Shown here in pieces: positions 951-39,912 of a stretch of 64,000 nt of DNA. The DNA is taken from the NCBI RefSeq assembly GCF_003334385.1, contig NZ_QOWN01000002.1. One strand, given 5' to 3'. The translations under genes were made by a program, and so were the position numbers. Every line of letters begins with the position of its first letter. Positions within the stretch are counted from its first letter, which is position 1. This DNA comes from Escherichia coli. GTDB lineage: Bacteria > Pseudomonadota > Gammaproteobacteria > Enterobacterales > Enterobacteriaceae. The notes below the pieces were generated by a model. The model saw nothing but the letters and a program-made list of their open reading frames with translations. It was not told the DNA's origin and ran no database searches.

Positions 951-2282
951 TCAAGAAAATGCCAGGAACGGAGAAACACACAGCAACAAACCAGTGACGA
1001 TAATCAGGTACAGAGACATCCCTTTGTATTTGTGCAATGCTGGTACTTTGTAAACCAGCCACGCCGGGATCAGGCACCCTACCATGCCGAAAATCGGGCT
1101 ACAGATAGAGGTGAAGCTCAACACCGGTGCGTTCAGTACGATGGCGCTCCAGGCCAGCAAAATGGCGAAAATCATGATGCCGCGCTGAACGAGATTTTCG
1201 TTAATCTTCTCGGCAGGCATCTTGCGACGCAGGATGTTCATTACGATCCCTTGCGTTGCTTCGCGAAAGCCTAAATAGACGCCAAAGAATGCAGTCATGA
1301 CAGCAAAGATATTGAGAATGACGCTGACCACTTTCACCCACGCTGCGCCGTCACCGCTAATAAACTGTGCGGCAATCGCCAGCGCGGAAATATTCTGCTC
1401 ATAGGCTTTTACCGCTTCGTCATGTCCCATCGCCAGCGTGAACGACACGGCGTAGAAAAAGACGGTGACAAACAAAATGCCAAACGCGATATTCATTGCC
1501 CGCAATGCTTTATGCCGCGCCACTTCAATTGATTTTTCCCGCGAGCGATAAGAGATCACCATCGGACTTAACGTCTGGATAAACAGAATCGACGTCAGGG
1601 TAAACGGCAGCGTAATAATGGCGTTTTTCACCAGCAGCCCCAGCGGCGGTAGCGAACCGACGTTATACAGATGCCACATTCCCACCATCGACACGCCCAG
1701 CGCCGCGACCACCAGCAACTTGGTCAGCACCATGCCGGTCGAAATTTTGAATAACAATTTCTCGCCGCGTGAGGAGATCGCCACCAGAATGCAAATCAGT
1801 ACCAGACCATAAAAGGGACTGTCTGACAGCAACCCTTCCGTCACGCCGAAGGTATGCAGGTAGGAAGCACTATCGTTGGTGATGGCGGTGGAATAGACGA
1901 ACATCCAAATCACCAGCATTACGAAATAGAGCGCACCTAACAGGATGCCCCAGTTTTTACCTAAATAACCGCTAATGACGCTCGGGTAATCTTTACATTC
2001 TGGTGATTCTGCCAGCGTATTAATAAACAATCGCTGAAACAGATACATTGCCGGGTAACCAATCACCGATGAGAGCAAAAATACCCACAATCCCATCAAA
2101 CCGACCTGCACCGGGAGAAAAACAATCCCCGCGCCAATCGCCATCCCGATACTCATAATCACCCAGCCGGTGTCAGTACTGTCGAATTTGATCGCTTCTC
2201 GCCACTCGCTCTCACTCATTCCAGCACGACCCGCCGGGGTCGAAGCGTCTGCAATGACGCCTTTATTCGATGCAATTTCCAT
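951..2282 (-). CDS. cyuP: Cysteine/serine transporter CyuP (YhaO), HAAAP family, 443 aa
   Basis: Track ORF with a multi-helix membrane protein, paralogous to TdcC at 7958..9289; sits immediately upstream of cyuA on the same strand. Confidence 0.85.
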   Translation of the reverse strand: MEIASNKGVIADASTPAGRAGMSESEWREAIKFDSTDTGWVIMSIGMAIGAGIVFLPVQVGLMGLWVFLLSSVIGYPAMYLFQRLFINTLAESPECKDYPSVISGYLGKNWGILLGALYFVMLVIWMFVYSTAITNDSASYLHTFGVTEGLLSDSPFYGLVLICILVAISSRGEKLLFKISTGMVLTKLLVVAALGVSMVGMWHLYNVGSLPPLGLLVKNAIITLPFTLTSILFIQTLSPMVISYRSREKSIEVARHKALRAMNIAFGILFVTVFFYAVSFTLAMGHDEAVKAYEQNISALAIAAQFISGDGAAWVKVVSVILNIFAVMTAFFGVYLGFREATQGIVMNILRRKMPAEKINENLVQRGIMIFAILLAWSAIVLNAPVLSFTSICSPIFGMVGCLIPAWLVYKVPALHKYKGMSLYLIIVTGLLLCVSPFLAFS

Positions 2283-2506
2283 AATTTCTCGCTCAATATT
2301 TTGTAGGGCTTATTATTTTTTTCCGAGCCGCATCAAGGCGATATGCGGTCTACGTTTTTGCAGGCGAGTTATTAGAATAAAGAAATGATACGCGCGAGGT
2401 CAGAGAAAATCTTCACAATCAAGACTTTGAAATAACGGAGATGGATAAGAATTTTCTACTAAATTAATCGCAGGAGAATATTCATTCTCTATTTGCGGCA
2501 GATCAC

Positions 2507-2532
2507 AAAAAAAAGGTGCACATTTGTGCACC
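2507..2532 (-). terminator. Rho-independent terminator after tdcG (end of tdc operon)
   Basis: Perfect palindrome ggtgcaca-tt-tgtgcacc preceded on the plus strand by an A8 run, which is a U-run after the hairpin on the minus-strand transcript. Coordinates approximate. Confidence 0.6.
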
Positions 2533-2556
2533 CAAGGATGAAAGCTGACAGCAATG

Positions 2557-3921
2557 TCAGCCGCAGACCACTTTAATGGCCAGTCCTCCGCGTGATGTTT
2601 CGCGGTATTTATCGTTCATATCTTTGCCGGTTTCATACATCGTCTCGATCACTTTATCGAGTGAAACACGCGGTGCCGAGGTGCGGCGCATCGCCATCCG
2701 CGCGGCGTTTACTGCTTTCACGGCATTAATGGCATTACGTTCAATGCACGGGATTTGTACCTGTCCGGCAACCGGATCGCAGGTCAGCCCAAGGTTATGC
2801 TCCATCGCGATTTCCGCCGCATTGCATACCTGCGCCGGACTGCCGCCCAGTAGTTCAGTTAACCCTGCCGCCGCCATTGAACAGGCCACGCCAATCTCCC
2901 CCTGACAGCCGACTTCCGCGCCAGAGATGGAGGCGTTCATTTTATACAGCGCGCCAATAGCCCCCGCGGCCAGAAAATAGCGGGCAATTGACCGCTCGTT
3001 TACCGGACGACGGAACTTATCGTAATAAGCCAGTACTGCCGGAATAATGCCGCACGCACCGTTAGTCGGTGCCGTTACCACGCGCCCGCCAGCTGCGTTT
3101 TCTTCACTAACCGCCAGCGCGTACATGTTGATCCAGTCGATGACATTCATCGGATCGTTAGAGATGTTATCGCTGGAAACCAGCTGACGACGCAGCGCTA
3201 CGGCACGGCGCGGCACATTGAGCGGACCAGGCAGCACGCCTTCAGTGTTCATCCCACGTTCAATACCGTCATGCATCACTTGCCAGATACGGGCAAAACC
3301 GGCGTCAATTTCCGCTTTGCTGCGCAGCGCTAGCTCGTTGTGCATCATCAGACCAGATATAGACAGGCCGTTGTAATCACACATTTTCAGCAGTTCACCT
3401 GCTGAGTGGAAATCGTAAGGTACGGACGTTTCGACATCGTGCGACAGGCCGAAGTGTTCTTCTTCGACAATAAACCCGCCGCCGACAGAGTAATAGGTTT
3501 TACTTAATAGCTCTTCCTGTCCCTTCCAGGCAGTGATCCGCATTCCGTTCTCATGGCGAGGCAACATTTCGGGATGGAAGATAATGTTCTTTGCTACAGG
3601 AAAATCAACAATATGCGCACCAGATGCCACTGGCAGCCGCCCGCTGCGCGTTACTAACTCTATAAATGCAGGGATCTCATCAATGACAACATCCTGCGGA
3701 CTGTTTCCTGCCAGTCCCATGATGATGGCGACATCCGTGGCATGGCCTTTGCCCGTCAGTGACAACGACCCGTACAGATCGACCACAATATGGCTCGTCG
3801 CGGTTAATAAGCCGCTACTTTCCAGCCGATCAATAAAACTTTTTCCGGCATTCATTGGCCCCACGGTATGCGAACTGGAGGGACCAATCCCAATTTTGAA
3901 AATATCGAATGCACTAATCAT
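2557..3921 (-). CDS. tdcG: L-serine dehydratase TdcG, 454 aa
   Basis: Track ORF 2557..3927; start set at the second in-frame ATG to give [23 protein letters not shown], the Fe-S L-serine dehydratase N-terminus. Confidence 0.9.
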
Positions 3922-4395: not shown

Positions 4396-6690
4396 TCAGA
4401 GCGCCTGGGTAAAGGTACGTGAAATAACATCCTGTTGCTGTTCACGGGTCAGTGCGTTGAAGCGCACGGCGTAGCCAGAGACACGGATTGTCAGGTTAGG
4501 ATATTTTTCCGGGTGCTCGATGGCATCCAGCAGCATTTCCCGATTCATTACGTTGACGTTGAGGTGTTGACCGCCTTCGACATCCGCTTCGTGGTGGAAA
4601 TACCCATCCAGCAGGCCGACAAGGTTGGTTTTACGTACTGGATCTTCTTTGCCCAGCGCCGCAGGAACGATTGAGAAGGTGTACGAGATCCCATCTTTGG
4701 CGTAGGTGAACGGCAGTTTCGCCACCGACGTCAATGAGGCCACGGCACCTTTGCGGTCACGACCATGCATCGGGTTAGCGCCCGGCGCGAACGGTGTTCC
4801 GGCGCGACGACCGTCCGGCGTATTACCGGTTTTCTGGCCGTACACCACGTTAGAAGTGATAGTCAGAATCGACTGGGTAGGGACGGCGTTGCGATAGGTT
4901 GGCAGCGCTTTAATTTTCTTCATAAAGCGTTCAACCAGGTCGCAGGCAATGCTGTCTACGCGCTCGTCGTTGTTGCCGTACTGCGGATATTCACCGTCGA
5001 TTTCAAAGTCCACCACCAGGCCGTTTTCGTCACGGATTGGTTTCACGCGGGCATATTTGATGGCAGACAGGGAGTCCGTCGCCACCGACAGGCCCGCGAT
5101 GCCGCATGCCATAGTGCGATAGACATCACGATCGTGCAGCGCCATCAGCGAAGCTTCGTAGCTGTACTTGTCGTGCATGTAGTGAATGATATTCAGCGCG
5201 CTGATGTACTGCACCGCCAGCCAGTCCATGAAGTGATCGAGGCTGTCCATCACTTTGTCGTAATCCAGCACGTCGTCCATCAGCGGTGCTGTTTTCGGCC
5301 CGACCTGAATCTTCAGCTTCTCGTCCACCCCGCCGTTAATTGCGTAGAGCAGCGTTTTCGCCAGGTTAGCGCGTGCACCAAAGAACTGCATTTGCTTACC
5401 AATCACCATTGGGCTGACGCAGCAGGCAATCGCGTAATCGTCGCTGTTGAAGTCAGTACGCATCAGATCGTCATTTTCATACTGCAAGGAAGAGGTGACG
5501 ATCGACACCTGCGCGGCATATTTTTTGAAGGCAATCGGTAATTCTTCCGACCAAAGAATGGTCAGGTTAGGTTCCGGTGCCGGCCCCATAGTGTGCAGGG
5601 TGTGCAAATAGCGGAAGGAGTTTTTGGTCACCAGCGTACGACCGTCCAGCCCCATCCCGCCGATCACTTCCGTCGCCCAGATTGGGTCGCCGGAGAACAG
5701 CGAATCAAATTCCGGTGTACGCAGGAAGCGTACCATACGGATCTTCATGATGAAGTGATCGATCAGTTCCTGTGCCTGCTGCTCATTGAGTACGCCAGCT
5801 TTAAAGTCGCGCTCAATGTAGATATCGAGGAACGATGCCGTGCGGCCCAGCGACATCGCGCCGCCATTTTGCGATTTCACTGCCGCCAGATAAGCGAAGT
5901 AGAGCCACTGCACCGCTTCCTGCGCATTCTGCGCCGGGCGAGAGATATCAAAGCCATATTTCGCCGCCATTTCCTGAATCTGCAACAGCGCATGACGATG
6001 CTCTGCCAGCTCCTCACGCAGACGGATGGTGGCTTCCAGATCCTCGCCTTTTTCCAGACGAGACTGGAGATCGGCAAATTGCAGTTCGCGTTCACGTACC
6101 AGATAACTGATGCCATACAGCGCTACGCGGCGATAGTCACCGATAATGCGCCCACGGCCATAGCCATCTGGTAAACCGGTCAGCACGCCAGATTTACGGC
6201 AGCGCAGCATATCCGGTGAGTAAACATCAAATACGCCCTGGTTATGGGTTTTACGCAGATCGGTAAACAGATATTCAAATTCACTGTCCATTTCTCGGCC
6301 ATAGGCGTGGAATGAACTTTTAATCATATTAATGCCACCGAACGGGTGTAGCGCACGTTTCAACGGCGCATCCGTTTGCAGGCCAACAATTTTTTCCAGC
6401 GGCTGGTTAATATATCCCGCATCATGAGCGGTAATTGTGGTGGCAATATTGGTATCGAAATCAACCGGCGCGTGGGTTGCATTTTCGATACGGATGCCTT
6501 CCATTACTTTTTCCCACAATTCCGTGGTGGCAGGCGTCGCTTCGGCGAGGAAAGATTCATCGCCTTCATACGGTGTATAGTTATGTTGAATAAAATCGCG
6601 GACATTAATTTCGTTTTTCCAGTCCGTACCTTTAAAGCCAAGCCATGCGTCGGCGTACAGCTTATCGCTGGTATCAATATCTACCTTCAT
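4396..6690 (-). CDS. tdcE: 2-ketobutyrate/pyruvate formate-lyase TdcE (glycyl radical enzyme), 764 aa
   Basis: Track ORF; C-terminal glycyl-radical motif RVSGYAV and PFL-like sequence throughout. Confidence 0.93.
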
Positions 6691-13989: not shown

Positions 13990-14100
13990 AAATGCCTGAT
14001 GCGCTACGCTTATCAGGCCTACGCCATCTCTGCAATATATTGAATTTGCGTGCTTTTGTAGGCAGGATAAGGCGTTCACGCCGCATCCGGCATGAATAAA
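13990..14100. repeat. REP/BIME element (two palindromic units)
   Basis: gcctgatgcgctacgcttatcaggcctac and ggcaggataaggcgttcacgccgcatccggcatg are classic REP sequences. Coordinates approximate. Confidence 0.75.
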
Positions 14101-14117
14101 GCGCACTCAACAATCTG

Positions 14118-14487
14118 AAACCCGCCGGAACGGTTTATTACGTACATCAGGTAAAACTGACCGATAAGCCGCTTTCTTTTGGGTATAGTGTCGTGGACAG
14201 TCATTCATCTTTCTGCCCCTCCAAAAGTAAAAACCCGCCGAAGCGGGTTTTTACGTAAAACAGGTGAAACTGACCGATAAGCCGCTTTCTTTTGGGTATA
14301 GTGTCGTGGACAGTCATTCATCTTTCTGCCCCTCCAAAAGCAAAAACCCGCCGAAGCGGGTTTTTACGTAAACCAGGTGAAACTGACCGATAAGCCGCTT
14401 TCTTTTGGGTATAGCGTCGTGGACAGTCATTCATCTTTCTGCCCCTCCAAAAGCAAAAACCCGCCGAAGCGGGTTTTTACGTAAATC
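14118..14487. repeat. Three tandem 113-bp direct repeats in the rnpB 3' flank, each with a terminator-like hairpin
   Basis: The unit caggtgaaactgaccgataagccgctttcttttgggtatagtgtcgtggacagtcattcatctttctgcccctccaaaag-aaaaacccgccgaagcgggtttttacgtaaa recurs with a 113-bp period. Each copy shares about 45 nt with the 3' end of rnpB and carries the hairpin aaacccgc-cgaa-gcgggttt. A degenerate partial copy precedes them near 14118. Confidence 0.85.
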
Positions 14488-14864
<377 letters not shown>

Positions 14865-14896
14865 GGCGCGCAGTATAGAGGGTTTGCGCGCCCTTG

Positions 14897-16042
14897 TCAC
14901 CCCGCGTTGCGCATTCCAATCGCCAGTGTCGCGGCGATATTACGTGAAGCACGGCAGATATTGTCATAAGCCCCGCGGAATGCTTCGTCCAACGTACCTA
15001 TGCTGGTCAATACGCTGAAGACCGCATCAATGCCATGCTGATGTACAACGCCAACATCATCGGTCAGGCTACCCGCAATGCCAATCACCGGTTTATGGTA
15101 CTTCTTCGCCACGTTTGCGACACCAATCGGTACCTTCCCGTGAATACTCTGGCTGTCAATACGCCCTTCACCGGTGATCACCAGCGTACAATCGTGAATA
15201 TGTTCCTCCAGATTCAGCGCCGTAGTGACGATTTCAATACCACTTTTCAGTTCCGCACCAAGAAACGCCATTAGCGCCGCGCCCATACCACCCGCAGCTC
15301 CTGCACCGGGGACATCTTTCACATCAACATGCAGCGCTTTTTTAATGACCTCGGCATAGTGAGAGAGGTTATTGTCCAGCTCAACAATCATCGCTTCACT
15401 GGCTCCCTTTTGTGGGCCAAAGATGCGCGATGCGCCGTTATCGCCCACCAGCGGATTGGTGACATCACAAGCGACGCGAATGACGCAATCTTTTAAGCGC
15501 GGATCGAGGCCGGAAATATCAATATCATTCAGAGTATTAAGACTACCGCCGCCAAAACCAATTTCATTGCCGTTGGCGTCGCATAATTTCGCCCCCAGCG
15601 CCTGTACCATGCCTGCGCCGCCATCATTTGTAGCGCTGCCGCCAATGCCGATAATAATGTTTGTCGCACCGCTCTCCAGCGCCTGCAGGATTAACTCGCC
15701 TGTGCCGCGTGAAGTGGTCACGAGTGGATCGCGTTTTTCCGCAGGTACCAGCTCCAGCCCACTGGCCGCCGCCATTTCAATAAACGCGGTTTTGCCATCG
15801 CCGGAGATCCCCCAACTGGCATTCACTTTCTCGCCCAGCGGCCCTGTAACCCAGGCGTGACGTTCAGCCCCCTGGGTGGCTGCAATCATCGCTTCCACCG
15901 TTCCTTCGCCACCGTCGGCAACCGGAACAGAAACGTACTGTGCATCAGGAAAAATTTCCCGAAATCCTTTTTCTATCGCCTGCGCAACCTCGCTGGCAGA
16001 TAAACTTTCTTTATAAGAGTCTGGGGCGATTACGATTTTCAT
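14897..16042 (-). CDS. garK: Glycerate 2-kinase GarK, 381 aa
   Basis: Track ORF 14897..16123; start set at internal ATG giving MKIVIAPDSYKESLSA (glycerate kinase family). Confidence 0.9.
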   Translation of the reverse strand: MKIVIAPDSYKESLSASEVAQAIEKGFREIFPDAQYVSVPVADGGEGTVEAMIAATQGAERHAWVTGPLGEKVNASWGISGDGKTAFIEMAAASGLELVPAEKRDPLVTTSRGTGELILQALESGATNIIIGIGGSATNDGGAGMVQALGAKLCDANGNEIGFGGGSLNTLNDIDISGLDPRLKDCVIRVACDVTNPLVGDNGASRIFGPQKGASEAMIVELDNNLSHYAEVIKKALHVDVKDVPGAGAAGGMGAALMAFLGAELKSGIEIVTTALNLEEHIHDCTLVITGEGRIDSQSIHGKVPIGVANVAKKYHKPVIGIAGSLTDDVGVVHQHGIDAVFSVLTSIGTLDEAFRGAYDNICRASRNIAATLAIGMRNAG

Positions 16043-16138
16043 ACCTATGCCTGTTACCACATGACGCCGGAGGGCGTTTCTCTTATTCGGCCTGGATTCC
16101 AGGCCCGGATTGCAATACGCCATCCGGGCACGACGTCA

Positions 16139-17029
16139 TTAACGAGTAACTTCGACTTTCGCCAGTTTTTCGTAGTAGCACGCCAGGGCGCTATGATCCG
16201 CCGTTCCTAAACCATCTGCTCGCAGTGCCTGCATCATCTCCATAACCGCAGCTGTGAGCGGCAGTTGTGCGCCGACGCCGTGAGAAGTATCCAGCGCATT
16301 CGCCAGATCCTTAATATGCAGATCAATACGGAAGCCCGGCTTGAAGTTGCGGTCCATCACCATCGGCGCTTTGGCATCCAGCACGGTACTGCCCGCCAGT
16401 CCACCGCGAATTGCCTGATAAACCAGGTCCGGGTTAACGCCCGCTTTAGTTGCCAGCGTTAACGCTTCTGACATCGCGGCAATATTCAGCGCCACAATGA
16501 CCTGATTTGCCAGTTTGGTGACGTTACCTGCACCGATTTCCCCGGTATGCACCACGGAACCCGCCATCGCTTTCATCAAATCATAGTATTTGTCGAAAAT
16601 AGCCTTGTCGCCGCCCACCATCACTGACAGCGTACCGTCGATGGCTTTCGGTTCACCGCCGCTCACCGGAGCATCCAGCATATCAATGCCTTTCGCTTTC
16701 AGCGCTTCGCTGATTTCACGGCTTGCCAGCGGTGCGATAGAACTCATATCGATCAATACCGTACCTGGCTTCGCGCCTTCAATAATGCCATTCTCACCCA
16801 GCGCCACCTCTTTCACATGAGGGGAGTTTGGCAGCATGGTTATGATGACGTCGCACTGTTCAGCGATCGCTTTAGCCGTAGACGCTGTTTCTGCACCTGC
16901 AGCAATCACGTCAGCAATAGCTTCTGGGTTACGGTCAGCAACCACCAGCGAGTAACCTGCTTTCAGAAGGTTTTTACTCATTGGTTTACCCATAATCCCC
17001 AGGCCAATAAAACCAACTTTCATAGTCAT
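16139..17029 (-). CDS. garR: Tartronate semialdehyde reductase GarR, ~296 aa
   Basis: Track ORF 16139..17038; Rossmann motif GFIGLGIMG near the N-terminus. Three clustered in-frame ATGs; middle one chosen (MTMKVGF). Start uncertain by up to 9 nt. Confidence 0.88.
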   Translation of the reverse strand: MTMKVGFIGLGIMGKPMSKNLLKAGYSLVVADRNPEAIADVIAAGAETASTAKAIAEQCDVIITMLPNSPHVKEVALGENGIIEGAKPGTVLIDMSSIAPLASREISEALKAKGIDMLDAPVSGGEPKAIDGTLSVMVGGDKAIFDKYYDLMKAMAGSVVHTGEIGAGNVTKLANQVIVALNIAAMSEALTLATKAGVNPDLVYQAIRGGLAGSTVLDAKAPMVMDRNFKPGFRIDLHIKDLANALDTSHGVGAQLPLTAAVMEMMQALRADGLGTADHSALACYYEKLAKVEVTR

Positions 17030-17058
17030 ATCAATCATCTCTCTTGTTGCGGTGGTGG

Positions 17059-17829
17059 TTATTTTTTAAAGGTATCAGCCAGTTTCTGAGTGGCAGAGCG
17101 GAAGACGCCGAGATCGCTGCCGACAGCCACAAACGTCGCGCCCCATTCCAGATAACGACGCGCATCGGCTTCGACCGGCGCGAGGATACCGCTGGGTTTG
17201 CCGTGCGCGCTGGCACGGTTAAAAATGTGCTGAATTGCTTTTTGTACATCCGGGTGTGATGCATTGCCGAGATGGCCTAATGCCGCGGCCAGATCGCTGG
17301 GGCCGACGAAGATGCCGTCTACGCCTTCGGTAGCGGCAATGGCATCGACGTTATCTACGCCCTGCTGACTTTCTATCTGGACCAGAATAGTGATGTTCTT
17401 GTTCGACTGAGCGAAATAATCCGCCACGGTGCCAAACATATTGGCGCGGTGAGAAACGGAGACGCCGCGAATGCCTTCCGGTGGGTAACGGGTTGATGCC
17501 ACCGCCAGCTCTGCTTCCTCTTTTGTTTCTACAAAAGGAATCAGGAAGTTATAGAAACCGATATCCAGAAGACGCTTAATAATTACCGGCTCGTTGGTCG
17601 GCACTCGCACTACTGGCGCGCTGGCGCTGCCTTTCAAGGCCATTAACTGCGGAATAAACGTGGAGATATCGTTTGGCGCATGTTCGCCATCCAGCACCAG
17701 CCAGTCAAACCCAGCCAAACCAAGAACTTCAGTGCTAATCGGGTTAGAGAGTGCTGACCAGCAACCAATTTGTACCTGTTTCGCAGCCAGTGCGGCTTTG
17801 AATTTATTCGGGAAAACATCGTTATTCAT
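17059..17829 (-). CDS. garL: 2-dehydro-3-deoxyglucarate aldolase GarL, 256 aa
   Basis: Track ORF; HpcH/HpaI aldolase family, conserved gar operon position. Confidence 0.92.
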
Positions 17830-17844
17830 CGCTTATACCTTTGC

Positions 17845-19179
17845 TTATTTCTGCAATTCCATACGTTTAATGTCGCCAACTACGAAGAGGTAGCAGACCA
17901 TCGCCATCAGCGCTGAACATCCCACGAAAACCAGTGCTGCATTGAAGGAGTGCAGTTCACTTACCAGGTAGCCAATCACCAGTGGAGTGACAATGGAGGC
18001 AACATTGCCAAAGACGTTAAAGACGCCGCCGCAGAGGCCAACAATCTCTTTCGGCGCGGTGTCAGAAATCACCGGCCAGCCCAGCGCACCAAATCCTTTG
18101 CCAAAGAAAGCCAGCGCCATCAGCATGACCACCAGCGTGGTGTTGTTGGTGTAGTTACATAAGATGATGGTGGAAGCCAGCAACATTCCCAGCACAATCG
18201 GTAGCTTACGTGCCAGGGTCAGGGATAAACCGCGTTTGATCAGATAATCCGAGAAGACACCTCCCAGCACGCCGCCCGCAAAACCACACAGTGCTGGAAT
18301 CGAGGCGACCAGACCCACTTTCAGAATCGACATGCCTTTTTCCTGCACCAGATAAATCGGGAACCAGGTGAGGAAGAACCAGGTGATGGTGTTGATAAAA
18401 TATTGTCCGAAAAATACGCCCAGCATCATGCGGTTAGAGAGCAATTGCTTGATGTAATGCAGTTTGGGTCCGCTTGCTGCCGCACTGCCCGGCTTTTTGT
18501 GGTCCATATCGACCACCGCGCCATTTTCAGAGATAAACTTCAGCTCTTCCGCAGACATACGTGGGTGATCTGTCGGGTTATGAATCAACTTGATCCACAG
18601 CGCCGTCAGCACAAAACCAATCACCCCCATAACGGTAAAGACGTGCTCCCAGCCCCAGGCGAAAGTCAGCCAGCCAAGCAGCGGCGAAAAGAGCGCCAGC
18701 GAGAAATATTGCGCCGAGTTAAAGATGGCGGAGGCAGTACCACGTTCTTTCGTCGGGAACCAGGCGGCGACAATTCGGGCGTTCGCCGGGAATGATGGCG
18801 CTTCCGAGAAGCCGAGCATAAAGCGCATAAAGAACATGGAGATCCCTGCCCAGGCCAGCGGGAACATATCAACAAAGCCTTGCAGGAAGGTGAATAGCGA
18901 CCAGAAAAAGAGGCTGTAGGTGTAAACTTTTTTCGAGCCAAACTTATCAAGCAGCCAGCCGCCGGGGATTTGCATCAGCAAGTAGGCCCAGCCAAAAGCG
19001 GAGAAGATGTAACCCATCGAAACCGCACTTAACTGCAACTCTTTTGCCACTTCGGTACCAGCAATAGACAGCGTTGCACGATCGGCGTAGTTAACGGCGG
19101 TAACAATAAAAATAATCAGTAATATTAAATAGCGGGTATGCACGCCTTTCTTTTTTTCGTCAACGGTGTCCAGAATCAT
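17845..19179 (-). CDS. garP: Galactarate/glucarate MFS transporter GarP, 444 aa
   Basis: Track ORF; 12-helix MFS anion:cation symporter as first gene of garPLRK. Confidence 0.92.
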   Translation of the reverse strand: MILDTVDEKKKGVHTRYLILLIIFIVTAVNYADRATLSIAGTEVAKELQLSAVSMGYIFSAFGWAYLLMQIPGGWLLDKFGSKKVYTYSLFFWSLFTFLQGFVDMFPLAWAGISMFFMRFMLGFSEAPSFPANARIVAAWFPTKERGTASAIFNSAQYFSLALFSPLLGWLTFAWGWEHVFTVMGVIGFVLTALWIKLIHNPTDHPRMSAEELKFISENGAVVDMDHKKPGSAAASGPKLHYIKQLLSNRMMLGVFFGQYFINTITWFFLTWFPIYLVQEKGMSILKVGLVASIPALCGFAGGVLGGVFSDYLIKRGLSLTLARKLPIVLGMLLASTIILCNYTNNTTLVVMLMALAFFGKGFGALGWPVISDTAPKEIVGLCGGVFNVFGNVASIVTPLVIGYLVSELHSFNAALVFVGCSALMAMVCYLFVVGDIKRMELQK

Positions 19180-39051: not shown

Positions 39052-39912
39052 TTACCCCTGCTGCTCCAGCGCATACTTATACAGCGCATTTTTCTTCACG
39101 CCGTGAATTTCTGCGGCCAGCGCCGCCGCTTTTTTCAGCGGCAGTTCTGCCTGTAGCAGCGCCAGCGTGCGCAGGGCATCGGCGGGTAAGTCTTCTTCCT
39201 GTGCTTTATGACCTTCGACAATCAGCACCATTTCGCCTTTGCGACGGTTTTCATCTTCCTTTACCCACGCCAGCAGCTCGCCAACGGGCGCGCCGTGAAT
39301 GGTTTCCCAGGTTTTGGTCAGCTCACGCGCCAGAACCACGTAGCGGGATTCGCCTAATACCGCAACGATATCTTCCAGGCTATCTAACAGACGGTGGGTA
39401 GATTCATAAAAAATCAGCGTGCGCGGCTCCGCTTCAATGGCTTTTAGCGCATCACGGCGGCCTTTTGATTTGGCAGGTAAAAAGCCTTCGTAACAGAAAC
39501 GGTCAGAGGGTAAACCCGCTGCGCTTAACGCAGTGATAGCAGCACACGGCCCGGGTAGCGGCACCACGCGGATCCCCGCTTCACGGCAGGTACGCACCAG
39601 ATGGTAGCCAGGATCGTTAATTAGCGGCGTTCCGGCATCGGAAACCAGCGCAATGTTTTGCCCCTCTTGCAGCTTCGCCAGCAGCGTTTCAGCTTTTTGT
39701 TGTTCGTTATGGTCGTGCAGCGCAAACAACCGGGCATTAATCCCAAAATGTTGCAGCAATAAACCGGTGTGACGAGTATCCTCGGCGGCAATCAGATCAA
39801 CGGCCTGTAATACCTCTAACGCACGCTGGGTGATATCCGCCAGATTGCCGATTGGCGTCGGTACAATGTAAAGCTGGCCCTGAGAATTATCCGCCGATTG
39901 GTGTTGTTTCAT
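39052..39912 (-). CDS. rsmI: 16S rRNA (cytidine1402-2'-O)-methyltransferase RsmI, 286 aa
   Basis: Track ORF; tetrapyrrole-methylase fold ([15 protein letters not shown]). Confidence 0.92.

Follow-up and report, generated by a model that had tools for sequence, protein, structure and literature searches.

The closest described counterpart of the locus analysed here is the rnpB promoter of Escherichia coli K-12, known in work on E. coli as P1 or rnpBp. The classical papers on this promoter are reportedly those of Reed in 1982, Motamedi in 1984, Lee in 1989, Jung and Lee in 1997 and Park in 2002. Motamedi and colleagues are said to have described tandem promoters of rnpB, including additional upstream ones, while Jung and Lee and later Park and colleagues reportedly dealt with the stringent control of the promoter, the former also with the role of its G+C-rich discriminator. 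We found that the promoter ahead of rnpB in a 64,000-nucleotide stretch of E. coli DNA (the window) is this same element, with an identical sequence and transcription start site (TSS) and no difference from the K-12 one. The promoter, its start site and its place behind garK are already documented, and the arrangement is an ordinary one.

The stringently controlled promoters of rRNA operons (rrn P1) and tRNA genes share several features with the rnpB promoter – a G+C-rich discriminator, a non-consensus -35 element, a stable RNA product and a -10 hexamer that ends 7 nt before +1. Unlike rrn P1, the rnpB promoter has no A/T-rich UP element, and its spacer measures 17 bp, whereas 16 bp is typical of rrn P1. 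Intra-operonic promoters, and promoter occlusion of the type described by Adhya and Gottesman, are similar in that a co-oriented upstream operon runs towards a downstream promoter with no terminator before it. The likeness to such occlusion is, however, one of architecture alone, and the downstream gene here encodes an essential ribozyme. The rsmI-rnpB pair of other gamma-proteobacteria-like genomes also has a co-oriented protein gene upstream, a short gap and no gene between, whereas in E. coli ~24 kb separates rsmI from rnpB and GarK stands in RsmI’s place.

The evidence set out below makes it very likely that rnpBp works autonomously as a stable-RNA promoter set tight against garK, and that read-through from upstream is dispensable. 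The locus thereby offers a clean example of an essential stable-RNA promoter abutting a coding gene, with 4 nt shared as -35 element and stop codon. We found no description, in the literature searched, of the reuse of the -35 TGA by unrelated genes or of the conservation of the spacer block AAACCCTC.

Anatomy of the garK-rnpB boundary

We identified rnpB by a match to the Rfam family RF00010 (RNaseP_bact_a) at 14488..14864 (-) that covers model positions 1-367 of 367 and scores 318.6 bits (E 2.6e-104) against a gathering score of 100. The neighbouring GarK matches the NCBIfam equivalog NF007668 over residues 1-381 of 381 with 844.6 bits (cut-off 686). Together garR, garL and garP span 16139..19179 (-) and form the same-strand upstream part of the operon ahead of rnpB (Table 1). 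A preliminary description of this DNA had placed the 5' end of M1 RNA only about 32 bp from the garK stop codon. Rfam, the list of open reading frames (ORFs) and RefSeq agree that this figure is exact, the gap occupying 14865..14896. In an identical K-12 sequence (L002), RefSeq annotates garK at 5059..6204 and rnpB at 6237..6613, which again leaves a gap of 32 nt. Positions 14400..15100 of the window are 100% identical to K-12 strains, and a 701-bp query across the garK-rnpB junction found it in 5426 of 5426 complete E. coli genomes, with at least 80% query coverage in 5421.

Table 1. Positions in the window of the genes, promoter elements and terminator at the rnpB locus
Feature	Position	Strand	Basis
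rnpB, M1 RNA (RNase P RNA class A), 377 nt	14488..14864	-	Rfam RF00010; RefSeq on identical DNA
garK, glycerate 2-kinase, 381 aa, last gene of garPLRK	14897..16042	-	NCBIfam NF007668; RefSeq
garR	16139..17029	-	RefSeq of identical K-12 locus L002 mapped onto window; ORF list
garL	17059..17829	-	RefSeq of identical K-12 locus L002 mapped onto window; ORF list
garP	17845..19179	-	RefSeq of identical K-12 locus L002 mapped onto window; ORF list
garK stop codon TGA, bases 2-4 of the rnpB -35 hexamer	14897..14899	-	ORF list; sequence
-35 hexamer GTGACA (-36..-31)	14895..14900	-	Promoter scan
17-bp spacer	14878..14894	-	Sequence; conservation in 79 species
Spacer half adjoining the -10 hexamer, AAACCCTC (-21..-14)	14878..14885	-	Per-position conservation
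-10 hexamer TATACT (-13..-8)	14872..14877	-	Promoter scan
G+C-rich discriminator GCGCGCC (-7..-1)	14865..14871	-	Sequence
+1 G, transcription start and mature M1 RNA 5' end	14864	-	Published TSS
First intrinsic terminator after rnpB, AAAAACCCGC-TTCG-GCGGGTTTTT and T run	14449..14478	-	Read from sequence

Scanning 14100..16300 for the sigma-70 consensus, we observed that GTGACA-17 bp-TATACT is the best match and the sole one to agree at 10 of 12 positions. Three promoter-like sites were found in the scanned region, against a mean of 1.4 in shuffled sequences. Between the -10 hexamer and the first base of the rnpB RNA lie 7 nt, and RNA polymerase would bind the two hexamers, set 17 bp apart, and initiate at G14864. 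Consistent with this position, Kim et al. 2012 (PMC3415461, Table S4) place an rnpB TSS at NC_000913 3268614 (-), supported by 1690 reads and having a 5' UTR of 0; their library had been prepared with terminator exonuclease and so enriched for 5'-triphosphates. The accompanying 51-nt sequence equals window positions 14864..14914 (-) with zero mismatches. Because a TSS from a 5'-triphosphate-enriched library falls on G14864, the mature 5' end of M1 RNA is a primary end, and since the start base and the mature end coincide, 5' processing is unneeded.

These data bear directly on a different account of the locus, in which 14864 is a processing site, M1 RNA derives from promoters within garK or from the garP promoter, and GTGACA-17-TATACT is a chance match. 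Two weak promoter-like sites within garK (15084..15056 and 15678..15651, each 9/12) would suit that account, as would the mention of tandem promoters in the title of the 1984 paper, but the mapping of the TSS after enrichment for 5'-triphosphates counts heavily against it, and we consider its probability very small indeed.

The overlap between garK and the autonomous promoter comprises 4 nt, namely the TGA together with the third base of the preceding glycine codon, which is base 1 of the -35 hexamer. Spacer, -10 hexamer and discriminator are all intergenic and fill the 32-bp gap. The preliminary description had held that the rnpB promoter abuts or overlaps the 3' end of garK; it does both, its -35 hexamer containing the garK stop codon and its start mapping to 14864. 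The same description had placed both the -35 and the -10 element within the final garK codons. This holds for the -35 hexamer only, through the 4 nt just named, and fails for the -10 hexamer, which is intergenic. Across 14860..14910, promoter prediction and the published TSS put the start on 14864 and not elsewhere. The double role of the TGA, within the -35 element and as garK stop codon, would be a result of tight gene packing.

An A/T-rich UP element or Fis sites, as at rrn P1, were sought upstream of -40 and not found; the interval -40..-60 consists of G+C-rich garK coding sequence, for which one viable strain has IS DNA instead, and there is no extra conservation upstream of -38. If this stable-RNA promoter were under stringent or growth-rate control, a G+C-rich discriminator and a departure from consensus at the first -35 base would be expected, and both are present.

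Possible transcription from the gar operon into rnpB

The preliminary description had also raised the prospect that transcripts of garPLRK run straight into rnpB, an outcome that a terminator between the two would preclude. We looked for such a terminator on the minus strand between garK and rnpB (14865..~14990), by a scan and by inspecting the gap by eye, and found none, although the scan did miss the genuine terminator behind rnpB, apparently because an A/T extension of the stem absorbs its T run. Within the 32-bp gap, T never occurs three or more times in succession. A simple scan of the last 150 nt upstream of rnpB likewise found no terminator-like hairpin or T run in 119 related loci, these being the matches listed that had enough upstream sequence.

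Read-through from garK into rnpB is structurally possible, as had been proposed: the genes are co-oriented and lack an intervening terminator, and a CRISPRi preprint treats them as one unit (10.1101/2020.03.04.975888). With no terminator in the gap, transcripts from the garP promoter can continue into rnpB. When the inducible garP promoter is active, its transcripts would pass through rnpB as far as the rnpB terminators. From the sequence, we expect them, like the transcripts begun at rnpBp, to stop at the first intrinsic terminator listed in Table 1 or at one of its repeated copies, which lie in 113-bp tandem copies at 14106..14528.

The sole predicted hairpin near the gap, GGCGCGCA(N12)UGCGCGCC, is located around the -10 element, directly 5' of +1, and carries no U tail. 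Folding of the garK-rnpB region is not better than that of shuffled sequences (z = -1.1). We considered GGCGCGCA...UGCGCGCC as a candidate conserved hairpin or cruciform and rejected it, the full stem being present in ~11 of 81 species, with a 5' arm that varies and a 3' arm (the discriminator) that is constant. Separately, E. albertii carries one compensatory change in this hairpin.

Published data were then compared with this architecture. In the CRISPRi preprint (10.1101/2020.03.04.975888), garP-garL-garR-garK-rnpB is a single transcriptional unit with the internal promoter rnpBp, and the locus serves as an example of an intra-operonic promoter. Knock-down of garP, garL, garR or garK produced no fitness defect there, and knock-down of rnpBp or rnpB was deleterious. 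Upstream transcription is thus dispensable, and we attribute this to the proximal promoter, which alone supplies the essential RNA, making the read-through transcripts expendable. That interference is harmful at rnpBp and not in garK also argues against 14864 being a processing site. The Term-seq tables of Adams et al. 2021 contain the 3' end of rnpB, and the next upstream minus-strand 3' end is in agaR; no 3' end falls in the garK-rnpB gap, but the gar operon was probably uninduced under the growth used, which makes this weak evidence. The SMRT-Cappable-seq supplements make no mention of rnpB or garK, and a paper on Fur sites that mentions garPLRK is silent on rnpB.

The absence of a terminator, the shared strand and the 32-bp gap would also suit a reading in which garPLRK read-through, induced by galactarate, glucarate or glycerate, occludes the rnpB promoter or yields 5'-extended precursors and so alters the supply of RNase P RNA. 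A co-oriented upstream gene that abuts the promoter, with no terminator by simple scan, in 119 of 119 related loci (among the matches listed) points the same way. Were this reading correct, an essential ribozyme would be tied to a catabolic operon. Yet CRISPRi blocks in the gar genes carry no fitness cost (10.1101/2020.03.04.975888), and the promoter is autonomous and heavily used in unsupplemented medium, as its 1690 TSS reads indicate. Elsewhere, moreover, the same promoter stands behind RsmI, AgaR, GarR, a tagatose-kinase-like gene and an IS transposase, and given such varied upstream genes nothing ties it specifically to galactarate regulation. We consider coupling to the gar operon, and with it such a link between the ribozyme and a catabolic operon, very unlikely. 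Functional interference between the gar operon and rnpB is speculative and weakly contradicted, and it is probably unimportant.

The essential ribozyme would need an exact 5' end, and RNA read through from upstream would therefore probably serve no useful purpose. RNase E, according to work attributed to Ko and colleagues in 2008, is reportedly involved in M1 maturation and is said to degrade transcripts initiated upstream.

Conservation of the promoter behind different upstream genes

To compare the promoter across species, we took one genome per species and required an exact match to the first 21 nt of M1 RNA, which yielded at least 120 Enterobacterales loci, the species counts from this survey not being phylogenetically independent. 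Among the 120 species listed, 111 have GTGACA as the -35 hexamer, 7 have ATGACA and 2 have TTGCAA; the spacer measures 17 bp in 118. A (G/A)TGACA hexamer combined with the 17-bp spacer is found in 118 of these 120 species, including at loci behind RsmI, AgaR or GarR. Among the matches listed, the -10 hexamer is TATACT or TATAAT in 80 of 80 non-RsmI loci; in Erwiniaceae loci TATTAT, TATCAT or TACACT occurs. Near-invariance of the -35 element, -10 element and discriminator across the 120 species listed is a further argument against a chance match upstream of a processing site.

Per-position conservation in the 79 Enterobacteriaceae species among the matches listed has a sharp onset at about -38 and is near-complete at -36..-31. 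The spacer varies at -30..-22, and the region from -21 to +1, AAACCCTC TATACT GCGCGCC, is almost fully conserved, discriminator positions -6..-1 being invariant or nearly so. Upstream of -38, these species show merely a codon-like 3-nt periodicity. Judged from this alignment, the spacer block AAACCCTC is very strongly conserved, beyond what a plain -35/-10 model would predict.

In 78 of the loci listed, the last codon is GGN or GCN and its four-fold degenerate position is the first base of the -35 hexamer, which is G in 71 of them, A in 7 and T or C in none. Avoidance of T at this position is consistent with selection against the consensus TTGACA. At the synonymous third position of the final garK codon, T thus appears to be avoided; it would make a consensus -35 element.

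We observed that the gene upstream of rnpB is GarK in 64 of the 120 loci listed and RsmI in 40, all from Erwiniaceae-type genera, with AgaR in 8, GarR in 5 and another gene in 3, among them a tagatose-kinase-like gene. RsmI, the 16S rRNA C1402 2'-O-methyltransferase, was identified by NF011570 with 603 bits. Among the matches listed, the TGA in the -35 hexamer serves as the stop codon in 54/64 GarK and 38/40 RsmI loci. GTGACA is equally kept in the 16 loci listed (8 AgaR, 5 GarR and 3 other) in which the stop codon lies farther upstream, and the 10 of 64 GarK loci listed with a stop codon farther upstream also have an unchanged promoter. That GTGACA is kept without an overlapping stop codon implies that the constraint comes from the promoter and that the stop codon is opportunistic.

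An insertion in E. coli UTME-10 illustrates the same independence of the promoter from its surroundings. In this strain an IS481-family element, flanked by a 5-bp duplication (GCGGG) and inserted directly 5' of GTGACA, separates garK from rnpB. The annotated IS481 transposase ORF leaves the element and ends on the -35 TGA. The rnpB gene is essential, and the presence of the insertion in a viable strain therefore means that sequence upstream of -41 and continuity with garK are dispensable. Engineering of the gar locus, or deletion of garK, must by the same token spare the sequence from about -41 onward because rnpB is essential. That a viable strain has garK cut off from the promoter also opposes the derivation of M1 RNA from promoters within garK or gar transcripts, and we regard the processing-site account as effectively refuted.

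The rsmI-rnpB pair and the origin of the overlap

Within the window, rsmI is located at 39052..39912 (-), ~24 kb upstream of rnpB, with the yra, aga, prlF-yhaV and gar clusters between the two. E. coli rsmI ends in TAA, followed by its own terminator. We looked behind it for a remnant of an rnpB promoter and discarded the candidate, whose likeness (GTAACA, CCGAAGC) is too short to interpret.

We also examined a distant sample of four RsmI representatives taken from 50%-identity clusters, 54-63% identical to E. coli RsmI. In all four, the gene for RNase P RNA follows rsmI directly on the same strand; the order lpoA <> rsmI -> rnpB -> mraZ is seen in three of these loci. The rsmI-rnpB gap is 46-163 nt in these loci, and the stop codon lies outside the -35 element. 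On this comparison, the rsmI-rnpB pairing looks old. Compaction onto the -35 element characterises, as far as these sequences indicate, the Erwiniaceae and Enterobacteriaceae loci sampled, and GarK would have replaced RsmI at the boundary in Enterobacteriaceae.

We propose that the overlap arose as a by-product when intergenic DNA was compacted towards a promoter that could not itself be lost: an upstream ORF that arrives in the right frame would run until it meets the TGA of the -35 hexamer. Alternatively, the overlap of stop codon and -35 element may itself have been selected, either because it guarantees co-transcription as a back-up supply or because it bars a terminator or insulating DNA from the space before the promoter. 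A single TGA ends three unrelated ORFs – those of GarK (54/64) and RsmI (38/40) among the matches listed, and of the IS481 transposase in one strain – and rsmI-rnpB adjacency is old, occurring in 4/4 distant RsmI representatives, both of which would fit selection. In those same four distant loci, however, the 46-163-nt gap keeps the stop codon out of the -35 element, and 16 AgaR, GarR or other loci and 10 GarK loci among those listed have their stop codon farther upstream with the promoter unchanged. Chance would, moreover, put one in three ORFs that read into GTGACA in frame with the TGA, and two or three independent overlaps are therefore unsurprising. The CRISPRi data, too, show upstream transcription to be dispensable. 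Selection for the overlap itself is accordingly very unlikely in our estimation.

A broader version of this idea takes the rnpB core promoter as a fixed boundary whose -35 TGA has been adopted as a stop codon by successive upstream genes, with the pattern selected and co-transcription functional. RsmI in Erwiniaceae, GarK in Enterobacteriaceae and the IS481 transposase in one E. coli strain would each have come to end there with a terminator never interposed, and ~24 kb of accessory clusters would have accumulated between rsmI and rnpB, ending a few bases from -38. If the pattern were selected, permanent co-transcription would have a function, for example as a source of back-up M1 RNA or in keeping the promoter open by incoming transcription, and the near-invariant spacer block AAACCCTC could belong to that function. 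We consider it improbable that the pattern was selected in this way.

A few bases that look like the 3' end of garK, such as ACGAAGGGTGACA, survive at several loci from which the gar genes are missing, and such garK-like remnants suggest deletions that halted short of the promoter.

The rnpB promoter and the end of garK

The rnpB promoter overlaps the end of garK, with the garK stop codon TGA lying inside the -35 hexamer (GTGACA) and the last garK codon supplying its first base. We compared this base across the species in which the upstream gene ends in a GGN or GCN codon and found that, among the matches listed, it is G in 71 of 78 and A in the other 7. T, which would produce the consensus TTGACA, was found in 0 of these 78 species, as was C.

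We observed a second conserved element within the promoter spacer. In the 79 Enterobacteriaceae species among the matches listed, the block AAACCCTC matches the -10 hexamer in its degree of conservation (92-100% at each position), and positions -30 to -22 are freely variable in the same species. Conservation of this block is unaccounted for by a plain -35/-10 model, and RNA polymerase or a regulator may make contact with it.

The junction is interrupted in E. coli UTME-10, where an IS481-family element is associated with a 5-bp target duplication (GCGGG) immediately 5' of the -35 hexamer. The end of the element supplies garK with a new stop codon (TAA), and the annotated transposase ORF terminates on the original TGA within the -35. 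In the window itself, garK contains two weak promoter-like sites; the title of a 1984 paper speaks of 'tandem promoters', and these sites might be the upstream ones.

Features at and around the rnpB locus
Feature	Position	Strand	Details
Tandem copies (n=3)	window 14106-14528	minus	3' of rnpB; 113-bp spacing; 89-92% identity
Spacer block AAACCCTC	window 14878-14885	minus	-21 to -14 of rnpB promoter
First base of -35	window 14900	minus	third base of last garK codon; synonymous site
Weak promoter-like site	window 15056-15084	minus	within garK; 9/12
Weak promoter-like site	window 15651-15678	minus	within garK; 9/12
rsmI	window 39052-39912	minus	
IS481-family element	L001 (UTME-10 garK/rnpB locus) 1900-3012		between garK and rnpB; NZ_CP157104.1

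Repeats and terminator downstream of rnpB

Every one of the three tandem copies contains the terminator hairpin AAAAACCCGCTTCGGCGGGTTTTT and the rnpB 3' end, and we take these copies to be the repeats reported downstream of rnpB in early literature. Their number seems to differ between E. coli genomes, since in some strains our 701-bp junction-spanning query gave a match of 814 bp split into two segments. The rnpB terminator itself (window 14449-14478, minus strand) is obvious, yet absent from the promoter/terminator scan output – probably because its T run was absorbed by an A/T extension of the stem. Having missed a real terminator, the scan yields negatives that need to be checked by eye.

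Gene order upstream of rnpB

Sequence comparison suggests that rsmI immediately upstream of rnpB is the older arrangement. At least 40 Erwiniaceae loci (L010-L120, RsmI type) have rsmI directly 5' of rnpB, as do all four loci of distant RsmI representatives (L123, L125, L127, and L128), three of which share the gene order lpoA <> rsmI -> rnpB -> mraZ. In E. coli, ~24 kb comprising the yra, aga, prlF-yhaV, and gar genes separates rsmI from rnpB.
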